Origin: a virus
Lineage: Duplodnaviria > Caudoviricetes
Virus record (IMG/VR): IMGVR_UViG_3300032318_001140
Coordinates: 1 to 45,138 of that record
DNA: 45,138 bases
Reading direction: 5' to 3' (one strand)
How positions within the stretch are numbered: the stretch's first letter is position 1; every line of letters begins with the position of its first letter. The translations under genes and the position numbers were made by a program. Under the pieces are notes generated by a model. It did not search any database, was not told the origin of the DNA, and worked only from the letters and a program-made list of their open reading frames with translations. This document shows positions 3,046 through 43,560 of this stretch, piece after piece.

Positions 3046-3609
3046 ATGAAGGATTTTTTGCCTACTACCTATACTTTCACACCTGGAACTTCTGGGGTAG
3101 GTACTGTTACTTTAAATATACCTAATTTTGACCTTAAGAGATTAGTGGCGATTATTAATCAAACCAGAGGAATAGTAATTTATTCTACTGGAAGTGTAGA
3201 CTTAAGATACTCTAGTATCTCTGCAAACACCTTAACATTATTTTTTGATACTAGTGCACAGAACGCTAATGATATTTTACAAGTTATATACAATTCTGAT
3301 GCTCCATTAGAAGTCATCGCAAATAAAACAGATGAGACTATTGAACTATTAAAAATTTTAGTAGATTTATTATTCTCTAACGCTATAGTTGATGCAGGAC
3401 AAAGACAAAAAATAGTTATAGATGCAATTACAGCAGGTCTGACATTAGCTACCGTAACAACCGTAGGTACTGTAACTGGGGTTAACACTGTATCTACGGT
3501 ATCTAGTGTGTCTAATATAGCAGCTTTATTTGGAGTAAACAACCAAGCCTACAACGACATGCTTAACAGTGTTTACGATTCAGGAATTAGAAACAGGATA
3601 ATTTTATGA
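3046..3609 (+). CDS. Putative virion structural protein (187 aa)
   Basis: Beta-rich N-terminus (YTFTP...LVAIINQTRGIVIY) and (T/S)V triplet repeats near the C-terminus; lies in the fibre-like block. Confidence 0.6.
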   Translation: MKDFLPTTYTFTPGTSGVGTVTLNIPNFDLKRLVAIINQTRGIVIYSTGSVDLRYSSISANTLTLFFDTSAQNANDILQVIYNSDAPLEVIANKTDETIELLKILVDLLFSNAIVDAGQRQKIVIDAITAGLTLATVTTVGTVTGVNTVSTVSSVSNIAALFGVNNQAYNDMLNSVYDSGIRNRIIL

Positions 3610-31691: not shown

Positions 31692-32083
31692 CCTTTGTAC
31701 TCACCGATCTTCCACTCTTCTAGCATATATTTAGAAGTCTTATTACCTATTCTAAAGTTACCATAAAACCCAATACCGTCATCAACTTTATTTACTATTT
31801 CTACGAACGGGTTGGTAGGAGAATACTGCACATATATAGTCTGTAGAATATCCTTAAACTCCTTAGCAGATTGATTTTCAATATTAAATTTTAAGATACT
31901 TTTATCAGGCAAATCTTTAAATATGTGTAACCAAGACTTTCCTAAGAAATGTTTAGCATGAAAATATCCTTCTTTATCTACTGGCTCACCCCCATGAGTA
32001 ATAGTAGTAGATATTTTATACTTACCTACAGATCCTTCTGTAGCCTCGATTAAGTTAGTTGATATTTCTTGCATTATATTCAC
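31688..32083 (-). CDS. Hypothetical protein (131 aa)
   Basis: Overlaps the end of the AAA gene; stop overlaps the gpD stop. Confidence 0.7.
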   Translation of the reverse strand: MNIMQEISTNLIEATEGSVGKYKISTTITHGGEPVDKEGYFHAKHFLGKSWLHIFKDLPDKSILKFNIENQSAKEFKDILQTIYVQYSPTNPFVEIVNKVDDGIGFYGNFRIGNKTSKYMLEEWKIGEYKG

Positions 32084-33329
32084 TCCAAATTCTAGTAGCT
32101 AAGTAAGTTTCTTCATTCCTCTTGAATGAAGGGATTATGTTTTTCATGTGATCCTCTATTTTCACTTCTTCTCCGTTCAGGAAATCCAGCACACACTCTT
32201 CAAGTAAAAATTCTACATCTGTTAATCCGTAGTTTAAATTTTTAAGTTTAGCTGTTACTTCACTATTAAACACATTAGCATAAAACTCAGAAGGCACAGA
32301 AATATATTTCCCTGCCTTGCTTTTTATGAATAGTGCAATGCTGTCTTCCGTAGGTAAATCAGCATAAAAATATTCATTAAGTCTTCCTCTTCTTATTAAT
32401 TCAGGAGGTACAGAACTTACAGAGTTACCAGTTAAAACAAAAAATAAAGTCCCATTGCTTTGCATGAAATCTAATAATTTCTTAAGTATTCTTTGAGTAG
32501 TTCCCGAATGATCGCTAAGTGTATTAGAAAACATCTTATCCACTTCATCTATAAGAATTACCGCCCTACCTATGGTAGCTATGTAACGTAAAGCCTGATC
32601 TATAGCTTTCTCACTATTACCCTGAAAACTATCCAAAGCAGAATGAACATCAAATAGATATACTGGGCAGTTTAGTATCTCAGCACACTTAAAAGCAGAC
32701 ATGGTTTTACCTGTACCTGGAACTCCAAAAACAGAAATACCTTTAAGTTTAATTCCAGTGTTATTATCAAAGCATATAGCTCTTCTTTTAAGCCATGTGG
32801 TTAATCCATTCATTCCTACTATCTCAGTAGAATTAGTAATTAGTCTAACTAAAGGATTTCTTTTACATAGATCCTCTAAGTACCCTTCTAAATAGTCTGT
32901 GAGGTTTACTCTGTCAAACTTAAACTTAAAATCTAAAGCATCTTGCTCAGTGCAAATTACCAATACTACTTTATCTCTATAGTCTTTCTCCACAAAAGAT
33001 TCTAAAGCTTTATTAAGAGTAGAGATACTTTTAGTTATCTCAGGAACCATAATTATAAATGGAGTAATTTCTGCATTTCTTTGTTTAGGCTTTAAAAGAT
33101 ATGTCTCAAGTGCAGTTTCGTAAGTATTACTTATGTTACTGGCAGCTATAGTTTTTGTGCCTTTAGTTATCTCTAAGATAGATTTTTCAGGTGTTAAAGT
33201 TATACTTCTAGTTAAGAAGTTCTTAGCTTTAGATAAAAATTCTGATTGTGCTTGTTTTGCGTAAGGTGTAGCAAACACTAGAACTTTACCTCTTTTTACT
33301 TTAAACAGATTTTCTAGATCATTATCCAC
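32055..33329 (-). CDS. AAA+ ATPase, Ycf46-like
   Basis: Walker A GVPGTGKT, Walker B ILIDEVDK, PPELIRRGRLNEYFYADLP, terminal W...NAR. GTG 33329 preferred, 6 nt after TGTGCTATCAT (33336-33346). Confidence 0.85.
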   Translation of the reverse strand: MDNDLENLFKVKRGKVLVFATPYAKQAQSEFLSKAKNFLTRSITLTPEKSILEITKGTKTIAASNISNTYETALETYLLKPKQRNAEITPFIIMVPEITKSISTLNKALESFVEKDYRDKVVLVICTEQDALDFKFKFDRVNLTDYLEGYLEDLCKRNPLVRLITNSTEIVGMNGLTTWLKRRAICFDNNTGIKLKGISVFGVPGTGKTMSAFKCAEILNCPVYLFDVHSALDSFQGNSEKAIDQALRYIATIGRAVILIDEVDKMFSNTLSDHSGTTQRILKKLLDFMQSNGTLFFVLTGNSVSSVPPELIRRGRLNEYFYADLPTEDSIALFIKSKAGKYISVPSEFYANVFNSEVTAKLKNLNYGLTDVEFLLEECVLDFLNGEEVKIEDHMKNIIPSFKRNEETYLATRIWSEYNARNIN

Positions 33330-33372
33330 ATTCCAATGATAGCACATCAAATCTAAAAGGTCTAGGAAGCCC

Positions 33373-33567
33373 TAGAAACTATTAAAAATAATCAAAGATT
33401 AAAGTATTGGGGTAAGTGTATTTTTGTTTGTTATGGGCGAACCTAGATATGTCTGATTTACTTTTTGGTAATTTTTCCCAACGCCCCATCTTTCCCCCAC
33501 ACCCCCTATCTACTCGTTTCACTCGGTAAATACTAAGAAGAAACAACATAAACTTTAATAGTTTCTA
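33373..33567. repeat. 14-bp perfect inverted repeat
   Basis: TAGAAACTATTAAA 33373-33386 / TTTAATAGTTTCTA 33554-33567. Confidence 0.85.
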
Positions 33568-33734
33568 ATAATCTCAGACTCTTTGAATAGTTAGTCTGGG
33601 TAGGGAAATATACGAATTATATGTAACTATGGAGGAGACTAGTTAATTTTAACTTTACTTACTTTTGGGAGTTAGTAGAGATAGAAATAACTAGGATTTA
33701 GTTATCTTAGGGTGGGGGTGCGGGGGAGGGGAGG
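33477..33734. other. Paired G-quadruplex motifs on opposite strands; candidate origin region
   Basis: Minus strand GGGGGTGTGGGGGAAAGATGGGGCGTTGGG (33477-33506); plus strand GGGTGGGGGTGCGGGGGAGGGGAGG (33710-33734). Confidence 0.5.
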
Positions 33735-33763
33735 TACATAGTAAATTATGTTATAATTAAGCC

Positions 33764-34036
33764 ATGACAGAAAATACAAAGAGAATTATATTTACAGATT
33801 ATTTAGCTAACGCACAAAGAATATCTTATCTTCCTATACTAGAAGCTTCTGAGGCTATAATAAATAAAAGCCTTGACAATGACACCTTAAACATTGTTTA
33901 TGATACAGAGAAACTAAAAGCTCACGCTAAAAAAATGAAGAAGTTATCCAACGAGGGGAAAACATTTAACTATTTAGACATTTTAGCTACACAATACGCA
34001 AATAATATTATAGAAATGTCGGTAGACGTGGTATAA
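33764..34036 (+). CDS. Hypothetical protein (90 aa), likely leaderless
   Basis: ATG 6 nt after TGTTATAAT (33749-33757). Confidence 0.7.
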   Translation: MTENTKRIIFTDYLANAQRISYLPILEASEAIINKSLDNDTLNIVYDTEKLKAHAKKMKKLSNEGKTFNYLDILATQYANNIIEMSVDVV

Positions 34037-34043
34037 TTATAGA

Positions 34044-34130
34044 GTAAATGCCGTACGAGGTTTTTGTCAATTTCTAAATGCCTTAGAAAAAAAAATGTTG
34101 TAAAAGAAGAGGGGAAACCCTCTTTTTTTA
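34044..34130 (+). ncRNA. Candidate ~85-nt regulatory RNA complementary to the start region of the downstream polymerase-like gene
   Basis: Extended -10 TGGTATAAT 34029-34037; terminator 34100-34131; 34045-34083 can pair with 34182-34214. Confidence 0.45.
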
Positions 34131-34131
34131 C
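34100..34131 (+). terminator. Intrinsic terminator
   Basis: GTAAAAGAAGAGGG-GAAA-CCCTCTTTTTTTAC. Confidence 0.85.
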
Positions 34132-34155
34132 GTTTATGTTAAGATGTAGTATAAT
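34127..34155 (+). promoter_or_regulatory. Sigma70-type promoter
   Basis: TTTACG (34127-34132), 17 nt spacer, TATAAT (34150-34155). Confidence 0.7.
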
Positions 34156-34195
34156 ATTTAAGTAGGTTAACACCCTATAATAGGCATTTCAACCA

Positions 34196-35854
34196 TTGAC
34201 AAAGAAAGCATTTATAAACAAATATTCATACGTTCCTAAGCAGACTTACTTAGACATGGAAGAGTATTTAAAAGATTTTAGTATAGCCGTTAGGCATTTA
34301 ATTTATCATATAATAAATTGCACCTTAAGAGAGTATGACAAAGAACATACAACCTGGGTTCCGATACCATCTACAGCTATAAATAAAGAGCTAGGGCAAA
34401 ATGTAAGAGTTAAAAACTTAGAAGAGCTTGGAATTATAAGTATTAAACCCCTTAATGATTTTGGAAAAACCTATAGCAGATTCGGTCATTTGTGCAGGGA
34501 GTATGAGGTTTCAGATACTATTTGGGAGGTCTTCACAAACTCCTTAGATGCAAATAGACATGCAAAAGAGTTTGTTAATCTATTTAACGGCAAGCCTAGA
34601 AAAATAATAACTAACAGCAAAGCTACTCTGGGATCTAGAGGGGTTATGCCTAGTTCCTTAGTCTCTAAAGCAGTAAATTCTATGGAGCCTTTCAGGTTTA
34701 ATGCCAAAAGTACCACAGAGCATATAGAGTTTATGAGGGCAAAGGCAGACTATACAAAGACTGATAAGTTTCGTTACATAGCTGACCTACATGCTTACAA
34801 CTATATTATGTCTGGATCTGTCTGGGTTAATATGACTGAGGCTGAGTACCATTCAGATTATGCTACGCAGATGTCTGGAAGAGTGAGTGAACTAGGAGGT
34901 GGATTCCAATCCTGTTCTAGGCTTATGAAACACGCTGCCTTTTTTGGTATTGAGAACATAAATAATTATGACCTTAAGTCTTCTCAGATACTAGGGGTAA
35001 TGCAACTATTTGAGGAAGCAGGAATAAGCACTGAGGCCATAGGAAATATATTACAGATAGATAAAGCTAAGACAGCAGCTCAACTCTCACTTACTTTAGA
35101 CTCCTTCAAGAAAGTTTTGATAGAGATAATACTAGGGGCCGATTTACCAGTATTTGAGAAAGCAGGTAAATGCAAGCACAATAATTCTTTCTACGAAGAC
35201 ATAATGCTTGGAGCTATAGGGGATAGTACAGAGGTGTATAAAAAGGTTTATCAGTGGCTACAACCATTAAAAAAAGATATAGACAAATGGCATAACACCT
35301 TACTAGACAAGGCTCTAAGTGATAAAAATGGTAGAAATTATATTTTAAATAAATGCGGTATAAATTTTTATTTAGGTGAGTACATAGATAAAAAAGGCAA
35401 GATAGTTAGCAAATCAGAATTGAAAAGACAGTTAGCAGCATTTTACCTCCAAGGACAGGAAGCCTGTTTTATTCACCATTTAACTATCCTCAGTAAAAAA
35501 TATGGGTTTACAGTTATATCTAACCAGCACGATGGACTATTAACCATAGGGGAGATACCCTCAGAAGCAATCGAGGAGGCTTCTAAGTTATCTGGGCTTA
35601 AGTATGCTGAGTTAGAGAAGAAAAATTTTGTAGAAGGTAAGGAGTTTCACCCAGCACCAATAATTCAGGAAATAAAAACTCCTAATATAGCTGAGACTGC
35701 GATTAAGCCTACAGTTGAATCTAAGGCTAAGAAAAGAAGAAGACGAAAACCTCCTGACGTTATACCTTTTGAATGGACTTTTGAGGACATAGATTTAGTA
35801 GCTCTTATGGAACAGGCAGAACTAGAAGATCGAAGGAAAATGTTATCGGGTTAG
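34196..35854 (+). CDS. PolA-superfamily polymerase-like protein without exonuclease (TV-Pol-like)
   Basis: SGRV...FQSCSR, motif A YDLKSSQ, motif B-like FKKVLIEIILG, LQGQE, motif C QHDGLL; possible HTH-like N-terminus. Confidence 0.7.
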   Translation: MTKKAFINKYSYVPKQTYLDMEEYLKDFSIAVRHLIYHIINCTLREYDKEHTTWVPIPSTAINKELGQNVRVKNLEELGIISIKPLNDFGKTYSRFGHLCREYEVSDTIWEVFTNSLDANRHAKEFVNLFNGKPRKIITNSKATLGSRGVMPSSLVSKAVNSMEPFRFNAKSTTEHIEFMRAKADYTKTDKFRYIADLHAYNYIMSGSVWVNMTEAEYHSDYATQMSGRVSELGGGFQSCSRLMKHAAFFGIENINNYDLKSSQILGVMQLFEEAGISTEAIGNILQIDKAKTAAQLSLTLDSFKKVLIEIILGADLPVFEKAGKCKHNNSFYEDIMLGAIGDSTEVYKKVYQWLQPLKKDIDKWHNTLLDKALSDKNGRNYILNKCGINFYLGEYIDKKGKIVSKSELKRQLAAFYLQGQEACFIHHLTILSKKYGFTVISNQHDGLLTIGEIPSEAIEEASKLSGLKYAELEKKNFVEGKEFHPAPIIQEIKTPNIAETAIKPTVESKAKKRRRRKPPDVIPFEWTFEDIDLVALMEQAELEDRRKMLSG

Positions 35855-35891: not shown

Positions 35892-36182
35892 ATGAGCGAA
35901 GAATTTACAGTTGATAAAGAAAAGGAAAGTTTATTACAAAGGGTGAGGAAATGTCACTATTTCGATAATCTTGTAGACGTAGAATATATAATAGCCGAAG
36001 CAATAAGGAAATTTAAAGAAGATAAAGAATTTATCAACAAGCTAAACGAATACCGTGAGGATCTTAAAATAAAAAACTTTCATAATTCCCTCGGGGATAA
36101 TGCTGGGGGCTTTCATCTTTTTATGCTTAAGTTTAGAGAGAAACTTATAGAGGATATTACTGGAGTTAAGAAGGAGGTCTAG
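35892..36182 (+). CDS. Hypothetical protein (96 aa)
   Basis: TGGTATATT 35863-35871 and AAGGA upstream. Confidence 0.7.
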   Translation: MSEEFTVDKEKESLLQRVRKCHYFDNLVDVEYIIAEAIRKFKEDKEFINKLNEYREDLKIKNFHNSLGDNAGGFHLFMLKFREKLIEDITGVKKEV

Positions 36183-37127
36183 ATGGCAAGACGATCTAAA
36201 TACTTAACACTAAAAAACATAATAGATAAAACTTATTTAGAAGTTTACAAGATTCCTGTAGCCTTCCATGCAAGAAACTTTCAACAAGTTAAGGATGCTT
36301 ATAATTTTTTAAGTAAAGCTACTAACATAGACATGGAAGACTTCGTTAGGTTTTCTATGGAGAATTGGGTCGTAATCATGAGTAGAGTCGCATCTACTTC
36401 TACTAGAGAGCAAGAATGTATGAAGACTTTTCATATAGGCTATTTCACAGCGGCCTTGGAACAGTTCTTAGTTATTTACGCAGATAGAAAAGATTTAATA
36501 GGGTATATTGCAGGAGACTTTAGACATAACGAAGTAGTAGATTTAGTTCGCAAAGGATTAAGTAAAGAGGATGCTGAAAAGAAAGTAGAGGCTAAATACA
36601 ATACAGAAAAACCTAAAGCCAACCCCATTGAGGTAGAAAAATTAATTAAGGAAAATGCTAAACTAAAAGAGCAGATGAGTAACCTACTAGCATCTATGCA
36701 GAATCGCCAAACAAAAGATAAAGAAGAAATGGATAGATTAACTACAGAGATACGTGAGCTTAAGGATGTAGTGCAGAAATATAGAACTGGTCAATTACTG
36801 CCTACTCTTAACAGGTTAGATTATTCTTTACCTCAGATAGGGGATAGGCCGTCCCCGATAGGACTGAATATGTATCCTAACTTAGAACTAAATATGTACC
36901 CTGACTCAGGGGAGAATGTGTATCCTAAATTAGAGAACATTTCTAACAATCTTATTGCAGCTTGGAAAAAGTCCGAAGACTCAGCAGACATATTTAGTAA
37001 CTGGCACGAAGCAGATGAAGCTAGAAGAGAAGAGATCAGGAAGACTAGGCAGTACATTACACAGCATGAAATGTATGAAGGTTTCTGGGGATTGTTAGAC
37101 TCTAGTAAAAAGGAAGCTTCTAGCTAA
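36183..37127 (+). CDS. Hypothetical protein, possible replication initiator
   Basis: AAGGAGG SD; ORF track starts at 36183 but the ATG appears at 36183-36185 directly after the upstream stop. Sits upstream of loader and helicase; coiled coil; internal 24-bp repeats. Function inferred from position only. Confidence 0.55.
   Translation: MARRSKYLTLKNIIDKTYLEVYKIPVAFHARNFQQVKDAYNFLSKATNIDMEDFVRFSMENWVVIMSRVASTSTREQECMKTFHIGYFTAALEQFLVIYADRKDLIGYIAGDFRHNEVVDLVRKGLSKEDAEKKVEAKYNTEKPKANPIEVEKLIKENAKLKEQMSNLLASMQNRQTKDKEEMDRLTTEIRELKDVVQKYRTGQLLPTLNRLDYSLPQIGDRPSPIGLNMYPNLELNMYPDSGENVYPKLENISNNLIAAWKKSEDSADIFSNWHEADEARREEIRKTRQYITQHEMYEGFWGLLDSSKKEASS
36864..36935 (+). repeat. 3 x 24-bp imperfect tandem repeat
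   Basis: CTGAATATGTATCCTAACTTAGAA / CTAAATATGTACCCTGACTCAGGG / GAGAATGTGTATCCTAAATTAGAG. Confidence 0.85.
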
Positions 37128-37137
37128 AAGGGAAACG

Positions 37138-37683
37138 ATGACCTTGAATAAACAGCAACACCGACTCAAAAAGAGTATAGGTATAAATGTAAACACCTCT
37201 AGAAACTTTGCTGATTATGGAGCAGACGGTGAGAAGGTTCGTGTTTTCCTAAGACAGCTTATGGAGAATCCAGATATACTTTTTCCAGGTAAGATCTACG
37301 CAATACAGACTGACGAAGTAGAACTGTATCAGAAAGCTTTATTCCTAATAGCTCAAATACTCAATAAAGTAAATCGCATAGACTACTGTAAAATGATTTC
37401 TGTAAATGATATAGTCTCAGGCGAATATACTATCAACTCCATTACCGTAAGAGAGGAGTTAGGCAAGAACCATGTACTTGGAGTTATGGATATGTTTGAT
37501 GCAGCTAAAGAAAACATAGAGTATATCTCTAGGATACAAAACTTTTTTTCTAAATGGTTAACTGAAGGTAAGAGCTTAGTTTTACTAACTGATAAAAACC
37601 CAAGATTAGAGATAGAGGCAAGCCCATACTATAAATGGTTCCAGTCTGTGCTAAAATCTAATCTCATAGGAGGCTTAATTTGA
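37138..37683 (+). CDS. Degenerate DnaC/IstB-like helicase loader (no Walker A)
   Basis: Directly before DnaB; HVLGVMDM (Walker-B-like) and GKSLVLLT segments; no GxxxxGK. Confidence 0.5.
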   Translation: MTLNKQQHRLKKSIGINVNTSRNFADYGADGEKVRVFLRQLMENPDILFPGKIYAIQTDEVELYQKALFLIAQILNKVNRIDYCKMISVNDIVSGEYTINSITVREELGKNHVLGVMDMFDAAKENIEYISRIQNFFSKWLTEGKSLVLLTDKNPRLEIEASPYYKWFQSVLKSNLIGGLI

Positions 37684-38954
37684 GTTTAGGATTAATTCTA
37701 ATCAGCAAAGTAGTTAGAGAAAAAGATATTGCTATTTTAACTAGCATAAATACAAAGCTTCTATGGGAAGAAGAATTAAAGATATTCGAGCCTGTAAGAG
37801 ATTTCTTTAATCGTTATAGAATAATTCCAGACGAGGAGTTTTTAAGAACTGAATATAAAATAGTATTAGCTCAAGAAGCTATATGCACGCAACCTTGCGA
37901 TTACTACGTGGAGAAATTACGAGATAGATTTGCTAGAGATTCTATAGCGACTTTACTAGAGAGAAAAGATACTTTACTAACTAAGTCTTGCTCAGATATG
38001 GCAGATTTAATTTTTGGTGTTTACTCTGAATTAACTACACTAAGCGACAAGAACTATTACTCGGATATGGCTGATAACCTAGCTAAGGCTGAACGCAGAA
38101 TATATGAAAATAGAACAGGGGCATCTAGAGGTATTCCTATGGGGTTTGGGGAGGTAGACGAGATGCTACTAGGGCTCAGAAAGACTGACCTGATAACATT
38201 ATCTGCACCTTCAGGAGAAGGTAAATCTTGGATGATTCTACACTGCTTATTAACTGCACAAAATGCAGGGTATAAAACGATGTATATAAACATGGAGATG
38301 GATGATGATGAATCCTCTGATAGGATGTTAGCAATGCTCACTCAGATTAATGCAGATTATATAATGACAGGAGAACTTAACTACAAAGGTTTAGAGGCTG
38401 TAAAAGAAGCTGTAGCTAAAGCTAAAGAGAAACCACAAATGATATTTGTAGACGGTAATCTAAGCTACAGTATAAACGATCTACTAGCTGCTATTCACTT
38501 CTATAAACCAGATGTTATTTTTATAGACGGTGTGTACCTAATGAATGACGGTACTACTGGCTGGAATGGTTCTATGTATGAGAAGCAAAAAGCCGTTATA
38601 GAAAAACTTAAACAAGCAAATAAAAAATATAAGATTCCCATAATGATGTCTACACAGAACGTATCTGCTAAGGCTCAAAAGAAAGAAGCTAGTAAAGCTA
38701 ATATATCTGGGGGAGCTGACATTATAAATGCTTCTTCTGTAGTAATAGAGATAAGAGCTTACGAGAGCGATAATAATTTTTACGAAATGACTATAGTTAA
38801 AGTGCGAAGAAACGCACCAGAAGAGAAAAGAAAGTGGTTAATGCGAAGGGATATGAGCATACATAAATTTGAATTTGCAGGATTTATCACAGAAGGTGGT
38901 AATCTAAGTAATAGCTTCACTTATGAAGATATAGATTTAAAGGAGTTAATGTGA
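37680..38954 (+). CDS. dnaB: Replicative DNA helicase (DnaB family)
   Basis: GIPMGF..VD, APSGEGKS, NMEM, IFIDGVYLM, STQ, IVKVR. Confidence 0.92.
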   Translation: MSLGLILISKVVREKDIAILTSINTKLLWEEELKIFEPVRDFFNRYRIIPDEEFLRTEYKIVLAQEAICTQPCDYYVEKLRDRFARDSIATLLERKDTLLTKSCSDMADLIFGVYSELTTLSDKNYYSDMADNLAKAERRIYENRTGASRGIPMGFGEVDEMLLGLRKTDLITLSAPSGEGKSWMILHCLLTAQNAGYKTMYINMEMDDDESSDRMLAMLTQINADYIMTGELNYKGLEAVKEAVAKAKEKPQMIFVDGNLSYSINDLLAAIHFYKPDVIFIDGVYLMNDGTTGWNGSMYEKQKAVIEKLKQANKKYKIPIMMSTQNVSAKAQKKEASKANISGGADIINASSVVIEIRAYESDNNFYEMTIVKVRRNAPEEKRKWLMRRDMSIHKFEFAGFITEGGNLSNSFTYEDIDLKELM

Positions 38955-41900
38955 AAGTATCAGGAAATAGAGTATGTGATGTTTTAGTTATACTAGAGCC
39001 TTCTAATCAGTCAGTGTCAGAATTTGTGGTTAGCGAGTCTGGTAAGATACTTACTTCTACCTTAAAGGAGGCTGGTGTAAATCTATCTAGAGTTTCTTTT
39101 ATAATCCCAGCTCCCGAAATACCTAGAGATATTAAGAAGATAGAAAAAGCAGCTAAAGAATTTGTACTAGCTCGTAGAGTTGAATTTATAAAAATATTTA
39201 ACACATTCAAACCTAAAGCTTTATTGTATGTGGCTAAGTATGCTGCACTGCAAGTTTTTGGAAGATCTGTAAAGGCTGGTGATTTTGAGGGGATTATTCG
39301 TAAAGTCCATACTCACGATTATCCTATAGTAGGATGTACCAGTATAAGAAACGCAGCATTATACAAAGACTCTATCTCTTTAGTGAAAGCTCAAATAATG
39401 ATGCTTAAAAAGCTTGTAGAGAATAATTATGAGTACAACGAAGAATTATTTAAGTTTGAGAATACCTACGAGTGGAGAGTAGACATATCTGATGTACTAA
39501 AGAATAAACCAAAGACAATAGCTTTTGACACAGAGACTACTGGCCTTGACTGGAAAGTAGATAGGCCTATAGTTTACCAAATGACTTTTGCTGAAGGACA
39601 TTCTATACTCAGCCCTGTTTGTGAGAGCTACTTTCCAGAATACTTTAAGGAAACCTTTGGTGACTTTAGCTACGATGCTCTAAGGGATCAGTGGAAGCAG
39701 ATAATAGAAGATCCAGAAATTAGGAAAGTAGGACACAACATAAAATTTGATATGCACATGGCCTTAAACTTAGGACATAGATTAAAGGGGTTATATATAG
39801 ACACATTGCAAATGCTTTGGTCTATAGACGAGAATATGCCTTCTAAAGGTTTAGATAACGCAGTTAAAATATTCGTACCTGAGCTTGCTGGGTATGCAGA
39901 TAATTTTAATAGAGAGACGGATAAAGGGCAAATGATAACCGTGCACCCTAGAGATATGATAGACTATGCAGGAGGAGATACAGATGCTACTTTTAGATTA
40001 TGTAAGACCTTGATAAAGATCGCCAAAGAAGATCCAAGTAATTTAAAAGTATTCAGTAAAGTTAAGATGCGAGCTATAGAAACCTTTTTCGACATGGAAC
40101 GTACTGGAATTAGAGTAGATGTAAATTACTTTGATAGCATATCTAAGGAATACTTAAAACATTTAAAAGAGGAAAGTGTAGAAATAATTAAATTAGTTCC
40201 TCCGAAAATAAGACGTAAATATATGTTCGGTAAGAAGTCTGAGACTAAAGAGCCTTTAAGGTTAGGGAATAGAGAAATGATGAGAGATGCTATATTTTCA
40301 GAAGATGGGCTAGGGATAATTCCTATTCCAGATAAAGGCTATGAGCCTTCTAGTAAAACTAAAGAAGTAAAAATTCCTTCTATTGCAGTTAATACACATT
40401 TAAAGTTCTTTAAAGAGCAAGGCTATGAGCTAATAGATAGATACTGCGACTACGCTAAAATCTCCAAGATGAGTGATACCTATACTGGCGACAGAGAGAA
40501 GTTAACAGGGCTATGGCAGCACATTAAGTTTAATGAGGAGACAGGGGAATACAGAATCCATCCCACGTACGATATTCACACCAACACTGGCAGATGCCTA
40601 ACTGGAGATACTTTAGTAACTGTTAAACAGGGCAGAAAGACTACTACTAAAAGACTAGATCAAATAGTTGTAGGAGATTTGACCCTAACGCACAAGCAAC
40701 GATACATGCCTGTAACTAAGATTTTTAAGAACAGCAAGAAAGAAGTTTATGGAGTTTGTTTAGATAACGGATCTGTAATCAGAGGAACTCTGAAACATAA
40801 GCTCATGTTAGAGTCTGGAGAGTTTAAGCAAATTCAGCACCTAGACTACACAGATAGATTAATGACTTACACGGATGGGGAGTTTAAAGGATCTAAAATA
40901 AATTCATTCTTTTACAAAAAGAATGATCTAGTAGAAACCTTTGATATAGAAGTAGAGGAAGATCATAGTTATGTAGCTAACGGAATAGTGTCTCATAACT
41001 CCAACTGCAAAAGACCTAACATGCAGAACCCACCTTCCAAAGGAGATTTAGCAGTACAGTTTAAGAAGAGTATTATAACTTCTGATGGATTCGTTTTACT
41101 TGCAGCAGATTATTCTCAAATGGAGCTTCGCTGTATAGCTATAGCTGCTAAGGAGAAGATCATGCAGCAGATCTATAACGAAGGACTAGATATACATGCT
41201 AAAACCGCAGCAGAAGTTTTATTAAAAATAACATTAGAAGAGTTCAGGAACATAGACTCTAAATTAAGAAAGGTATTAAGAAATAAGGCTAAGGCTATTA
41301 TATTTGGATTCATGTATGGATTACTACCTAAAGGATTTGTAGTGTATGCTAAATTACTTTATGATGCAGACTTTACGCTAGAAGAAGCCGAGATAATTAG
41401 GGAGACTTTGCTAACTCAGACCTACCCAGGATTACAACAATGGCATACAGACACCAAAGAGTTTGCTAACGAGCATGGCTACGTTAAAGCTCTTCACGGA
41501 AGTACTAGACACTTACCAGCTATACACTCACACGATAAGTGGGTTAAGCTAGAGGCAGAGCGTTACTGTATCAATAGCCCGATACAAGAATTTGGCAGCG
41601 ACATGGGATTAATGGCATTTGATTACATCATGAAAGACATGAGCAGAGATAATATAAGACCTATAAACTTCATCCATGATGCGTTATATTTTGAGGTGAG
41701 AAAAGAGCTAGCTGTAGAATATGCAAGTTACGTCAAATGGTACATGGAGAATGTTCCTATTGCTAGAGACTTTGGCATAGTATCACCTATTCCTTTTGTG
41801 GCAGATCCAGACTTAGGAGTTAATTGGGCTGAGGTGTTTACCTTAGCAGAGTTAGAATTAGAAACTAAAGATAAAAATAAAGATTTTAAATTATTCTGCA

Positions 41901-42001
41901 AAGAGTTTAATGTAACCAAAGAGCAAGCAGCTAAGTATTTCTGCTATAATAAAAATGACATAAAAATGGTAGCAACAAGACCAGATTTCTGTACTATCTA
42001 G
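38951..42001 (+). CDS. polA: Family A DNA polymerase with N-terminal UDG-like domain, 3'-5' exonuclease and mini-intein
   Basis: Exonuclease motifs FDTETTGL, GHNIKFD, YAGGD; polymerase motifs ADYSQMELR, RNKAKAIIFGFMYG, NSPIQ, IHDAL. Confidence 0.95.
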   Translation: MKVSGNRVCDVLVILEPSNQSVSEFVVSESGKILTSTLKEAGVNLSRVSFIIPAPEIPRDIKKIEKAAKEFVLARRVEFIKIFNTFKPKALLYVAKYAALQVFGRSVKAGDFEGIIRKVHTHDYPIVGCTSIRNAALYKDSISLVKAQIMMLKKLVENNYEYNEELFKFENTYEWRVDISDVLKNKPKTIAFDTETTGLDWKVDRPIVYQMTFAEGHSILSPVCESYFPEYFKETFGDFSYDALRDQWKQIIEDPEIRKVGHNIKFDMHMALNLGHRLKGLYIDTLQMLWSIDENMPSKGLDNAVKIFVPELAGYADNFNRETDKGQMITVHPRDMIDYAGGDTDATFRLCKTLIKIAKEDPSNLKVFSKVKMRAIETFFDMERTGIRVDVNYFDSISKEYLKHLKEESVEIIKLVPPKIRRKYMFGKKSETKEPLRLGNREMMRDAIFSEDGLGIIPIPDKGYEPSSKTKEVKIPSIAVNTHLKFFKEQGYELIDRYCDYAKISKMSDTYTGDREKLTGLWQHIKFNEETGEYRIHPTYDIHTNTGRCLTGDTLVTVKQGRKTTTKRLDQIVVGDLTLTHKQRYMPVTKIFKNSKKEVYGVCLDNGSVIRGTLKHKLMLESGEFKQIQHLDYTDRLMTYTDGEFKGSKINSFFYKKNDLVETFDIEVEEDHSYVANGIVSHNSNCKRPNMQNPPSKGDLAVQFKKSIITSDGFVLLAADYSQMELRCIAIAAKEKIMQQIYNEGLDIHAKTAAEVLLKITLEEFRNIDSKLRKVLRNKAKAIIFGFMYGLLPKGFVVYAKLLYDADFTLEEAEIIRETLLTQTYPGLQQWHTDTKEFANEHGYVKALHGSTRHLPAIHSHDKWVKLEAERYCINSPIQEFGSDMGLMAFDYIMKDMSRDNIRPINFIHDALYFEVRKELAVEYASYVKWYMENVPIARDFGIVSPIPFVADPDLGVNWAEVFTLAELELETKDKNKDFKLFCKEFNVTKEQAAKYFCYNKNDIKMVATRPDFCTI
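40595..40999 (+). mobile_element. Mini-intein (135 aa, no homing endonuclease)
   Basis: TGR|CLTGDTLV ... TLKH ... FDIEVEEDHSYVANGIVSHN|S. Confidence 0.95.
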
Positions 42002-42010
42002 GAGACAAGC

Positions 42011-42478
42011 ATGGAAGAATTAGAGTTTGATGAATTTGACGAAGTAGAAGTTACTTCTAAAGTAGACTTAAAGGTTGAGGAAGAGCTTAAAGCTTTAGCT
42101 CTTACTTACAATAAAACAAGAGTAGAGCGTTTAGCATTAGACAAAGAGTCTACGAGACTGAAGAAAGTTGAGGAGAGTCTCAAGGATATGATCGCAGAGC
42201 TATTTCCTAAACTAGGTAAATCTAGATTTTCTCATGCAGGTGTTATGGTTTCTTCTGCGGATAAAGAAGAGCAAGTCATAGGACTTAAGCCATTACTACG
42301 AATGGTTTCTGGAATTAAGACAGGCAAAATTACTCTTACTGATGAAGATATAGCAACCTTAGAAGAGTATATTAAGGTAACTAAAGGTAACGTAGAGAAA
42401 GGTTTTACTAAACAAGAAGTAAACGAAATGACTGTAGTTAATAAACTAGGTAAAAAACTGGATATTAAGGCAAAATGA
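42011..42478 (+). CDS. Hypothetical protein (155 aa)
   Basis: AGGAG SD; N-terminal coiled coil. Confidence 0.75.
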   Translation: MEELEFDEFDEVEVTSKVDLKVEEELKALALTYNKTRVERLALDKESTRLKKVEESLKDMIAELFPKLGKSRFSHAGVMVSSADKEEQVIGLKPLLRMVSGIKTGKITLTDEDIATLEEYIKVTKGNVEKGFTKQEVNEMTVVNKLGKKLDIKAK

Positions 42479-43560
42479 GTTATTCGTCTATAGCTAAAGC
42501 ACTGGAACTATCTAACGCAGTAGCTACAGAAGTAGGTGTTAAAGCAAGCTGCCCACTAGCTCCTTGGACTCATGGCAGTGGCACTGATTCAAGACCCTCT
42601 TTTAGCGTCAATGCCTACAAAGGTAAGTACTGGTATGGGTGCAGAGCTTGTAATCACACTGGTACTATAGATGAACTGTTAGAGAGATTGCATGGGTATA
42701 CTAAAGATATTAAGTATGTAAAGCTAATGCCCAAAATGGCTAGATTAGAAGCCTCTGATGAGTTAGAGATTCTACCAGAAGCTAAGATAATAGAGTTGAC
42801 AGAAGAATTATATAATATAGTTCCTCCAGTAACAGACTATAAAGTAGCAACGGATTATTGCAAGGCTAGAGGAATAAGCCCAGAGACTTGTGATAGATTA
42901 AATTTAGGATATCATCCAGAGAAAAAGAGAATAGTATTTAATATTTATAATTACAGAGGTAAACTCTTGGGTCATACTGGAAGATTTATTTTTAAGATTA
43001 CGGAAGAGTACAGAGCCAAAGTTCCAAAAATACTAACTACTGCTTTATCTGGAGTTAAGAAGACTCTGTTAGGAATACATAAAGTAGATAACTCTAAACC
43101 AGTTATCATAGTGGAAGGCTTATTTATGTATGCAAGATTGCATGAGTTTGGACTCGATGAAAAATATAATATCCTAGCAACTATGGGGACAGGGGTAACT
43201 AAAATACAAAGAGAGCTTTTAATCTCCTTAAGCCTACCTACATATATGATGTTAGATAATGATGACTCAGGAAATAGAGCTATGTTCTTAGGAACTAATA
43301 AACTGCCCCCATTAAAAGATATGTGCGAACACATGGTAGTATATAAAGTAACATACCCAGAAGGCATAAAAGATCCAGATGACTTAACAAAAGATCAAAT
43401 ATATGCTATGATTGATAGTGCAAGTGTTATTACGAACAAACCAAAAAGGAGAAAAATAAATGACATTCAACTTACAAGAGTTCAAGGAGAAATCCAAACA
43501 GGATCACATCCGAAAAGAAAAGGCGAAAGCTCTAAGCGATCAAAAATTCAACATAATTAA
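42475..43560 (+). CDS. dnaG: DNA primase (Zn finger plus TOPRIM)
   Basis: CPL...H...D.RPSF...CRAC; RGI; IVEG; LDNDDSG; KDPDDL. Confidence 0.9.
   Translation: MSYSSIAKALELSNAVATEVGVKASCPLAPWTHGSGTDSRPSFSVNAYKGKYWYGCRACNHTGTIDELLERLHGYTKDIKYVKLMPKMARLEASDELEILPEAKIIELTEELYNIVPPVTDYKVATDYCKARGISPETCDRLNLGYHPEKKRIVFNIYNYRGKLLGHTGRFIFKITEEYRAKVPKILTTALSGVKKTLLGIHKVDNSKPVIIVEGLFMYARLHEFGLDEKYNILATMGTGVTKIQRELLISLSLPTYMMLDNDDSGNRAMFLGTNKLPPLKDMCEHMVVYKVTYPEGIKDPDDLTKDQIYAMIDSASVITNKPKRRKINDIQLTRVQGEIQTGSHPKRKGESSKRSKIQHN

Follow-up and report, generated by a model that had tools for sequence, protein, structure and literature searches.

The window analysed here, a 45,138-nt stretch of viral DNA, contains a real module with the anatomy which a sequence-only reading had noted; the kind of enzyme which it encodes was already known, while its regulatory and origin context is new. 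The best explanation of the module, to which we assign a probability of about 0.5, is that its 552-aa PolA-fold protein is a dosage-limited, site-specific primase/initiator acting at inverted G-rich sites, with DNA primers more likely than RNA primers. The protein would act at the G-rich sites located 0.5-0.7 kb upstream of its gene, and a predicted 90-nt RNA which pairs over the start codon would limit its amount. Its N-terminal domain would bind the origin, the AT-rich spacer between the sites would open and each strand would receive one primer from the purine-rich sites, with a purine start on a pyrimidine template, following which the phage DnaB, PolA and DnaG would extend both forks. The fold, the catalytic residues, the inverted core and the conserved complementarity argue for this explanation. 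Against it stand the DnaG which the phage already has, the broken copies which occur among the homologues, and a purine-tract trait which is clustered on the homologue tree, with the window and its complete relative below threshold. Of the self-contained initiation system proposed by the sequence-only reading, the PolA fold, the predicted RNA control and the origin-like setting stood, whereas the G-quadruplex (G4) pair was not supported as the working element and the RNA-polymerase character is doubtful.

Genomic context of the module

The window is a tailed-phage fragment (portal, capsid and tape measure genes) which is estimated to be 40% complete. A complete 114-kb relative, G001, which carries locus L001, was syntenic with the window and approximately 80-84% identical to it, and strains approximately 97% identical to the window were present in lake and freshwater sequencing runs from three studies. 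Since the nearest homologues of the 552-aa protein are cyanobacterial, the window phage is likely a cyanophage. In the window, in L001 and in a further locus, L002, the cassette heads the replication operon in a syntenic arrangement.

The module is divergent from an AAA ATPase gene (32055..33350, - strand; PF00004, E 8e-22) which likely has a leaderless start at GTG 33329, with an extended -10 box at 33344-33336, 6 nt ahead of this codon. An extended -10 box 5-8 nt 5' of the start codon was observed for 12 of 132 G001 ORFs, and leaderless genes may therefore be common in this phage. On the other side of the cassette, a 96-aa gene (35892-36182) was missing from L001 and apparently also from run X5. 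Genes of 314 and 181 aa for which no family was found (36183..37683, + strand) lie ahead of DnaB and may form a loader pair. Within the 314-aa gene, at about 36864-36935, there are three 24-bp repeats which were single-copy in L001. Family matches identified the replisome genes for DnaB helicase, PolA and DnaG primase (37680..43560, + strand), so that the full PolA and the DnaG which had been claimed were both found, together with DnaB. The PolA (38951-42001) has a 3'-5' exonuclease and, at residues 578-683, an intein-like insert (PF14890); approximately 180 aa of additional N-terminal sequence have no assigned family.

In G001 the detrended GC-skew minimum was located at 3224, between the two G-rich cores (3179 and 3401), with the maximum approximately half a genome away. 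Genes change strand at the same point as this minimum, and at four-fold sites the signal was weak (RSS gain 11 of 2674), being compatible with an origin at any point from 111 kb past the ends of the sequence to 13 kb. In the full-genome skew check which had been suggested, the position of the minimum counts for an origin at the cores, and the coincident strand switch and the faint four-fold signal count against it. At G001 reverse-complement coordinates 61057-65040 and 56998, long ORF-free stretches near the skew maximum and a third G4 regex match built of short repeats were observed.

Predicted fold and active site of the 552-aa protein

The gene at 34196..35854 (+ strand, TTG start) encodes a protein with an N-terminal domain of approximately 130 aa and a disordered tail from about residue 487. 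No Pfam family above cut-off and no exonuclease family was found for this ORF, and no fused nuclease family was found in 26 longer homologues. When the structure model (mean pLDDT 84) was compared with the PDB using Foldseek, PolA structures were on top (E 3e-8) and the PDB matches listed were DNA polymerases; in a structural atlas the model matched PF00476 with a TM of 0.51-0.54, and its best matches among viral models (BFVD) were uncharacterised jumbo-phage proteins. The motif residues are R229, D259, K305, Q419/E422 and H445/D446, of which R229, D259, Q419, E422 and D446 were invariant in 38/38 sequences and K305 was present in 37. The palm with two catalytic Asp, the hairpin Arg, the thumb and the fingers of the PolA superfamily were found, confirming the exonuclease-less PolA-fold gene that had been described from the sequence.

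T7 RNA polymerase has Gly at the sugar gate, the Tyr of the YG motif, a length of some 880 aa or more and promoter-binding domains. Here, the sugar-gate site Q264 was Gln in 35/38 sequences, and position 313, which corresponds to the YG-motif tyrosine site, was Met in 27, Phe in 5, Leu in 3 and Asn in 3 of the 38. With 552 aa, a gate Gln and mostly Met at position 313, the protein does not resemble a T7-like RNA polymerase, and the RNA-polymerase character which had been attributed to it is doubtful. The protein also departs from Pol I in that the Lys is not preceded by an Arg at four residues' distance, the site equivalent to E710 is Gln and that equivalent to F762 mostly Met/Leu/Cys. Since Gln is bulky like Glu, DNA or mixed primers are more likely than RNA primers.

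Probable kinship with TV-Pols and distribution of the family

The family comprised 1190 clusters at E <= 0.001 and 528 at 1e-30, distributed over cyanobacteria, Desulfobacterota, Rhodothermota and others. Its profile matched BAF36121.1 of cyanophage Ma-LMM01 (E 3e-22), which adjoins transposase genes. Iyer, Abhiman and Aravind (2008; PMC2579912) listed a TV-Pol element in Ma-LMM01, predicted TV-Pols to be primase-polymerases and interpreted such genes as mobile elements. BAF36121.1, whose transposase neighbours agree with the description in that paper, is probably the TV-Pol listed for this phage, and the 552-aa protein likely belongs to the same family. We refer to it as TV-Pol-like, since the arginine of the RxxxK motif was lacking in 38/38 sequences, position 301 being Lys in 17, Val in 16 and never Arg, as well as in the Ma-LMM01 homologue; D289, at the TV-Pol fingers aspartate position, was present in 15/38. 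The type of enzyme is thus no novelty, a probable TV-Pol having been reported from a tailed phage as early as 2008. The claim that the combination was undescribed in a tailed phage has to be narrowed to the origin and antisense context, which was not found in print within the literature searched, while the enzyme type had been proposed as a primase-polymerase and noted in Ma-LMM01.

Comparison of L002 with the window revealed that their DnaB proteins were 99% identical while the polymerases beside them were 51% identical over the C-terminal half (L002 1-808 against 34196-35854), which indicates that the polymerase gene was swapped between close phages. This could be accounted for if the gene and its upstream DNA were a TV-Pol-type cassette which is accessory or selfish and can be exchanged; so could the patchy spread over several phyla, the broken copies and the transposases beside the Ma-LMM01 homologue, in keeping with the reading of such genes as mobile in PMC2579912. 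Replication would then start otherwise, through the 314-aa/181-aa pair with DnaB or by recombination, and the RNA would quiet a costly gene. We consider this unlikely, as no recombinase or transposase ORF was found within the 33.35-35.9 kb cassette, which is syntenic in all three loci, and the rival repeats at 36.86 kb were single-copy in L001. Incompatibility types likewise swap initiator and origin together, which also counts against an accessory cassette. D5 helicase, resolvase, integrase or transposase neighbours were absent in the window cassette; a resolvase was present on a Calothrix plasmid and transposases in Ma-LMM01.

A distant member of the family was observed in Erwinia and Dickeya jumbo phages (phrog_30690; L087 4860-6476), with a 390-bp non-coding gap upstream and no clear tract. 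Among 18 small ORFs scanned upstream of homologues, 4 were KilAC antirepressors and 3 gave weak RHH-like matches.

Inverted G-rich sites and AT-rich spacer

A G3L1-7 regex search of the 45-kb window returned just two matches, at 33477-33506 (- strand) and 33710-33731 (+ strand), a number reached in 0/200 dinucleotide shuffles of the window. The G4Hunter scores were -2.32 (left) and +2.76 (right), against a shuffle maximum of 2.08. Two outward-facing G4 motifs on opposite strands, as had been described, are therefore present beyond shuffle expectation. The motifs have in common a 14-nt inverted core (33493-33506 / 33714-33727), and the AT-rich spacer between the cores (33507..33709) is a predicted unwinding region; in L001 the spacer holds a 24-nt purine tract.

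Conservation of the left G-tract (33477..33506, - strand) was restricted to the G5-N3-G5 core (33493-33506) and a flank up to 33525. In L001 both G5 runs were retained and the outer G3+ runs were gone, while the 14-bp inverted core became perfect and the adjoining 19 bp were unchanged. A C>T change at 33479 disrupts the left outer G run in strains X4, X5 and X8, and among the changes listed for these strains none was located at 33494-33525. The 19 bp adjoining the left core (33507-33525) contain a 5-bp direct repeat with 9-bp spacing, the same in L001, and are a possible binding site. The right G-tract (33710..33734, + strand; core 33714-33727) was G4-capable in every strain seen, with run lengths that differed, X4 and X8 having an additional G at 33713 and 33721. 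Retention of the core with loss or variation of the outer runs speaks more for a sequence-specific pair of sites than for two quadruplexes which are both required; G4 formation by the right tract may assist but is not the conserved feature.

The sequence-only reading had envisaged an RNA polymerase-like enzyme whose RNA primers are held by G-quadruplexes in the manner of mitochondrial CSB II. In favour of this model, the two motifs in the window exceed chance by far, the right tract retains the capacity to form a G4 both in L001 and in the strains examined, and purine-rich RNA on pyrimidine DNA forms stable hybrids. However, a four-run G4 kept at the priming sites, as for CSB II, was observed for the right tract while the left one was broken in L001 and in the three strains, and the pair as a working element was not upheld. 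Among 12 distant homologue loci none had paired G4 motifs and two had single matches nearby, so that the expected co-occurrence of upstream G-tract pairs with homologues was not seen, and in IMG/VR the exact paired pattern was found in one other contig only. Taken with the gate Gln, the YG site that is mostly Met and the DNA polymerases listed among the PDB matches, these results make RNA primers held by quadruplexes very unlikely.

The 90-aa gene and the predicted small RNA

A predicted leaderless 90-aa gene (33764..34036, + strand), whose L001 version has 85 aa, has an extended -10 box 6 nt 5' of its ATG which is retained in L001. The gene which had been reported is therefore present, its leaderless translation being predicted. 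Neither Pfam nor PHROG gave a family above cut-off for it, the search returning its own cluster only.

A small RNA of approximately 90 nt is predicted at 34032..34132 (+ strand; RNA about 34043-34132), with an extended -10 box at 34032-34037 and an intrinsic terminator of 15 pairs (34099-34132) which ends the unit. Segments 34044-51, 34061-71 and 34076-83 would pair with a target at 34182-34215 covering the ribosome-binding region and TTG start of the 552-aa gene, whose own promoter is predicted at 34127-34155 (promoter and target together 34127..34215, + strand). The predicted duplex (-26.2 kcal/mol) ranked first among 46 start regions and within the top 1.1% of 2244 windows. The promoter-to-terminator unit complementary to the 5' end of the next gene, as originally described, is thus backed by its -10 box, its terminator and a top-ranked duplex.

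The pairing register was set from the window alone. The two outer helices retained 16/16 pairs in L001, and all three target changes faced RNA changes (two A-U to G-C and one A-U to U-G; P 0.007), this covariation being drawn from one genome pair. Cognate duplexes had predicted energies of -26.2 (window) and -23.2 (L001), and crossed duplexes -18.4 and -14.2; the L001 duplex ranked 5/132, with a z of -0.5 in a crude test. Complementarity to the start site, as expected of an antisense-controlled initiator, was therefore kept through compensatory change in this pair of genomes, in support of the dosage control that had been proposed: the predicted RNA would block translation of the 552-aa gene and so limit its amount. 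A read-through transcript would fold alike, so that silencing could also occur in cis. The inverted complementarity expected across homologues gave no family-wide signal (4/23).

Purine tracts and plasmids among the homologues

Many homologues adjoin a purine tract of 40-120 nt, behind which a palindrome-like motif of 30 bp is frequent. At a threshold score of >= 28 a tract was found in 31/120 near flanks and 2/241 far windows, a contrast which is flattered because the far windows are mostly coding; of the loci with both flanks, 25/53 have a tract. The counts leave out fifteen duplicates of identical or nearly identical contigs and three further loci, and still include some near-copies. A quickly built tree of 59 proteins, with pieces under 330 aa left out, showed clustering of the tract trait (8 changes against 17.4 when shuffled). 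The window and L001 fell within a group of 20 rows (SH-aLRT 92), most of them cyanobacterial. Of these rows, 15 had a tract, 3 were unscorable and the two without were the window and L001, whose scores of 17 and 24 were under 28 and which both lacked the cyanobacterial 30-bp motif. Since the G-rich pair sits where relatives have the purine tract, we infer that it may be a clade-specific origin.

In cyanobacterial loci the 30-bp motif was located 20-70 nt 3' of the purine tract (flanks of L003-L010, L016-L021, L028, L042-L043, L046, L052, L057 and L059), and in some loci two or three copies of the element flank the gene, either on one side or on both. We take this motif to be reminiscent of those at CRISPR leaders and element ends. 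Low-complexity extensions resembling an in-frame purine tract were observed at the C-terminus of P0113, the N-terminus of P0074 and the gene end in L028, which suggests that the element can sit inside a gene, the DNA examined being that of L028.

On a Calothrix plasmid, complete at 13.7 kb, an open homologue spans the record start and a tract is located 440 bp downstream, and no known Rep family was found among the 14 ORFs scanned of its 25 annotated. A Synechocystis plasmid carries a split homologue copy with a tract upstream, and DnaB was found on 0/5 homologue-bearing elements, two of them complete. The family-wide tracts and the two plasmids support the origin-like setting that had been claimed. 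A polymerase role in transcription or in repair/gap-filling instead of initiation, the G-tracts being regulator sites of divergent promoters, is most unlikely. The position of the tracts between two divergent predicted leaderless promoters and the jumbo-phage homologues without obvious upstream tract would fit such a role, but the homologues on small plasmids, the adjacent purine tracts and the tight dosage control would be left unexplained. No publication was found, in a search mostly outside the subscription literature, on the link of the family to polypurine tracts, on the two cyanobacterial plasmids in this respect or on antisense control; the term TV-Pol was absent from the accessible portions of PMC7824862 and PMC4889955.

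Implications

Extended beyond this phage, the primase/initiator explanation would make the TV-Pol-like family a set of unrecognised single-protein primase-initiators with adjacent purine-tract origins, held in check by RHH repressors or small antisense RNAs, and joined here to a full replisome and an inverted G-rich origin of its own. We offer this only tentatively, and with equal reserve the range that it implies, namely cyanobacterial prophages, plasmids and phages, the window phage being of lytic type. As many relatives on cyanobacterial prophages and plasmids lie beside long purine tracts, the family may represent a type of replication initiator which has been overlooked. If so, an initiator class would be added for many phages and plasmids with unannotated replication genes, cyanobacteria would gain a new replicon, and a tailed phage would be shown to use antisense copy control in the style of plasmids. 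With a candidate origin beside the gene and small complete plasmids available, the question is testable with a two-part replicon.

Comparison with known systems

A dedicated enzyme primes at a defined origin in the case of POLRMT at CSB II, T7 RNA polymerase, ColE2 Rep and RSF1010 RepB', and the features for comparison are a G-rich tract with variable run length and two sites on opposite strands; the ColE2 and RSF1010 primases have another fold. The system here has no T7 RNA polymerase-type residues or size, and its G4 pair is not conserved.

A close likeness in architecture is that to the TV-Pols (PMC2579912), which also have a minimal, nuclease-free PolA core (400-600 aa), an extra N-terminal domain and a beta-hairpin Arg with two Asp, and which occur in mobile elements and viruses. 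The protein here differs in having no RxxxK arginine, no D5 helicase and no adjacent resolvase, and its gene heads a full DnaB/PolA/DnaG operon; the main text of PMC2579912 describes no origin element or antisense RNA for TV-Pols. CCPol, according to the accessible part of PMC7581432 the sole TV-Pol characterised as of 2020, requires a partner and a helicase, and CCPol-MP, of the characterised enzymes the nearest to the protein here, carries out de novo priming of DNA at its own origin. As far as the available text of PMC7581432 and PMC10061031 goes, CCPol-MP and PolA-SSB resemble the present system in the use of an A-family polymerase as a primase which starts preferentially at the origin of the element, and in a small neighbouring ORF. 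The same portions indicate that CCPol keeps the equivalents of E710 and F762, in contrast to the Gln and mostly Met/Leu/Cys found here, and that its partner is an OB-fold protein whose ORF is placed between those of the polymerase and the helicase; the 90-aa ORF here, in contrast, lies upstream and has no family.

For the control element a close parallel is provided by the antisense-limited cyanobacterial plasmid initiators CyRepX1/2, as described in the accessible part of PMC10899382. CyRepX is helicase-like and its overlapping RNAs are on the opposite strand, while the predicted RNA here is on the same strand, upstream and of partial complementarity; in both cases a replication gene is proposed to be limited by a complementary RNA which covers its start codon and ribosome-binding region.
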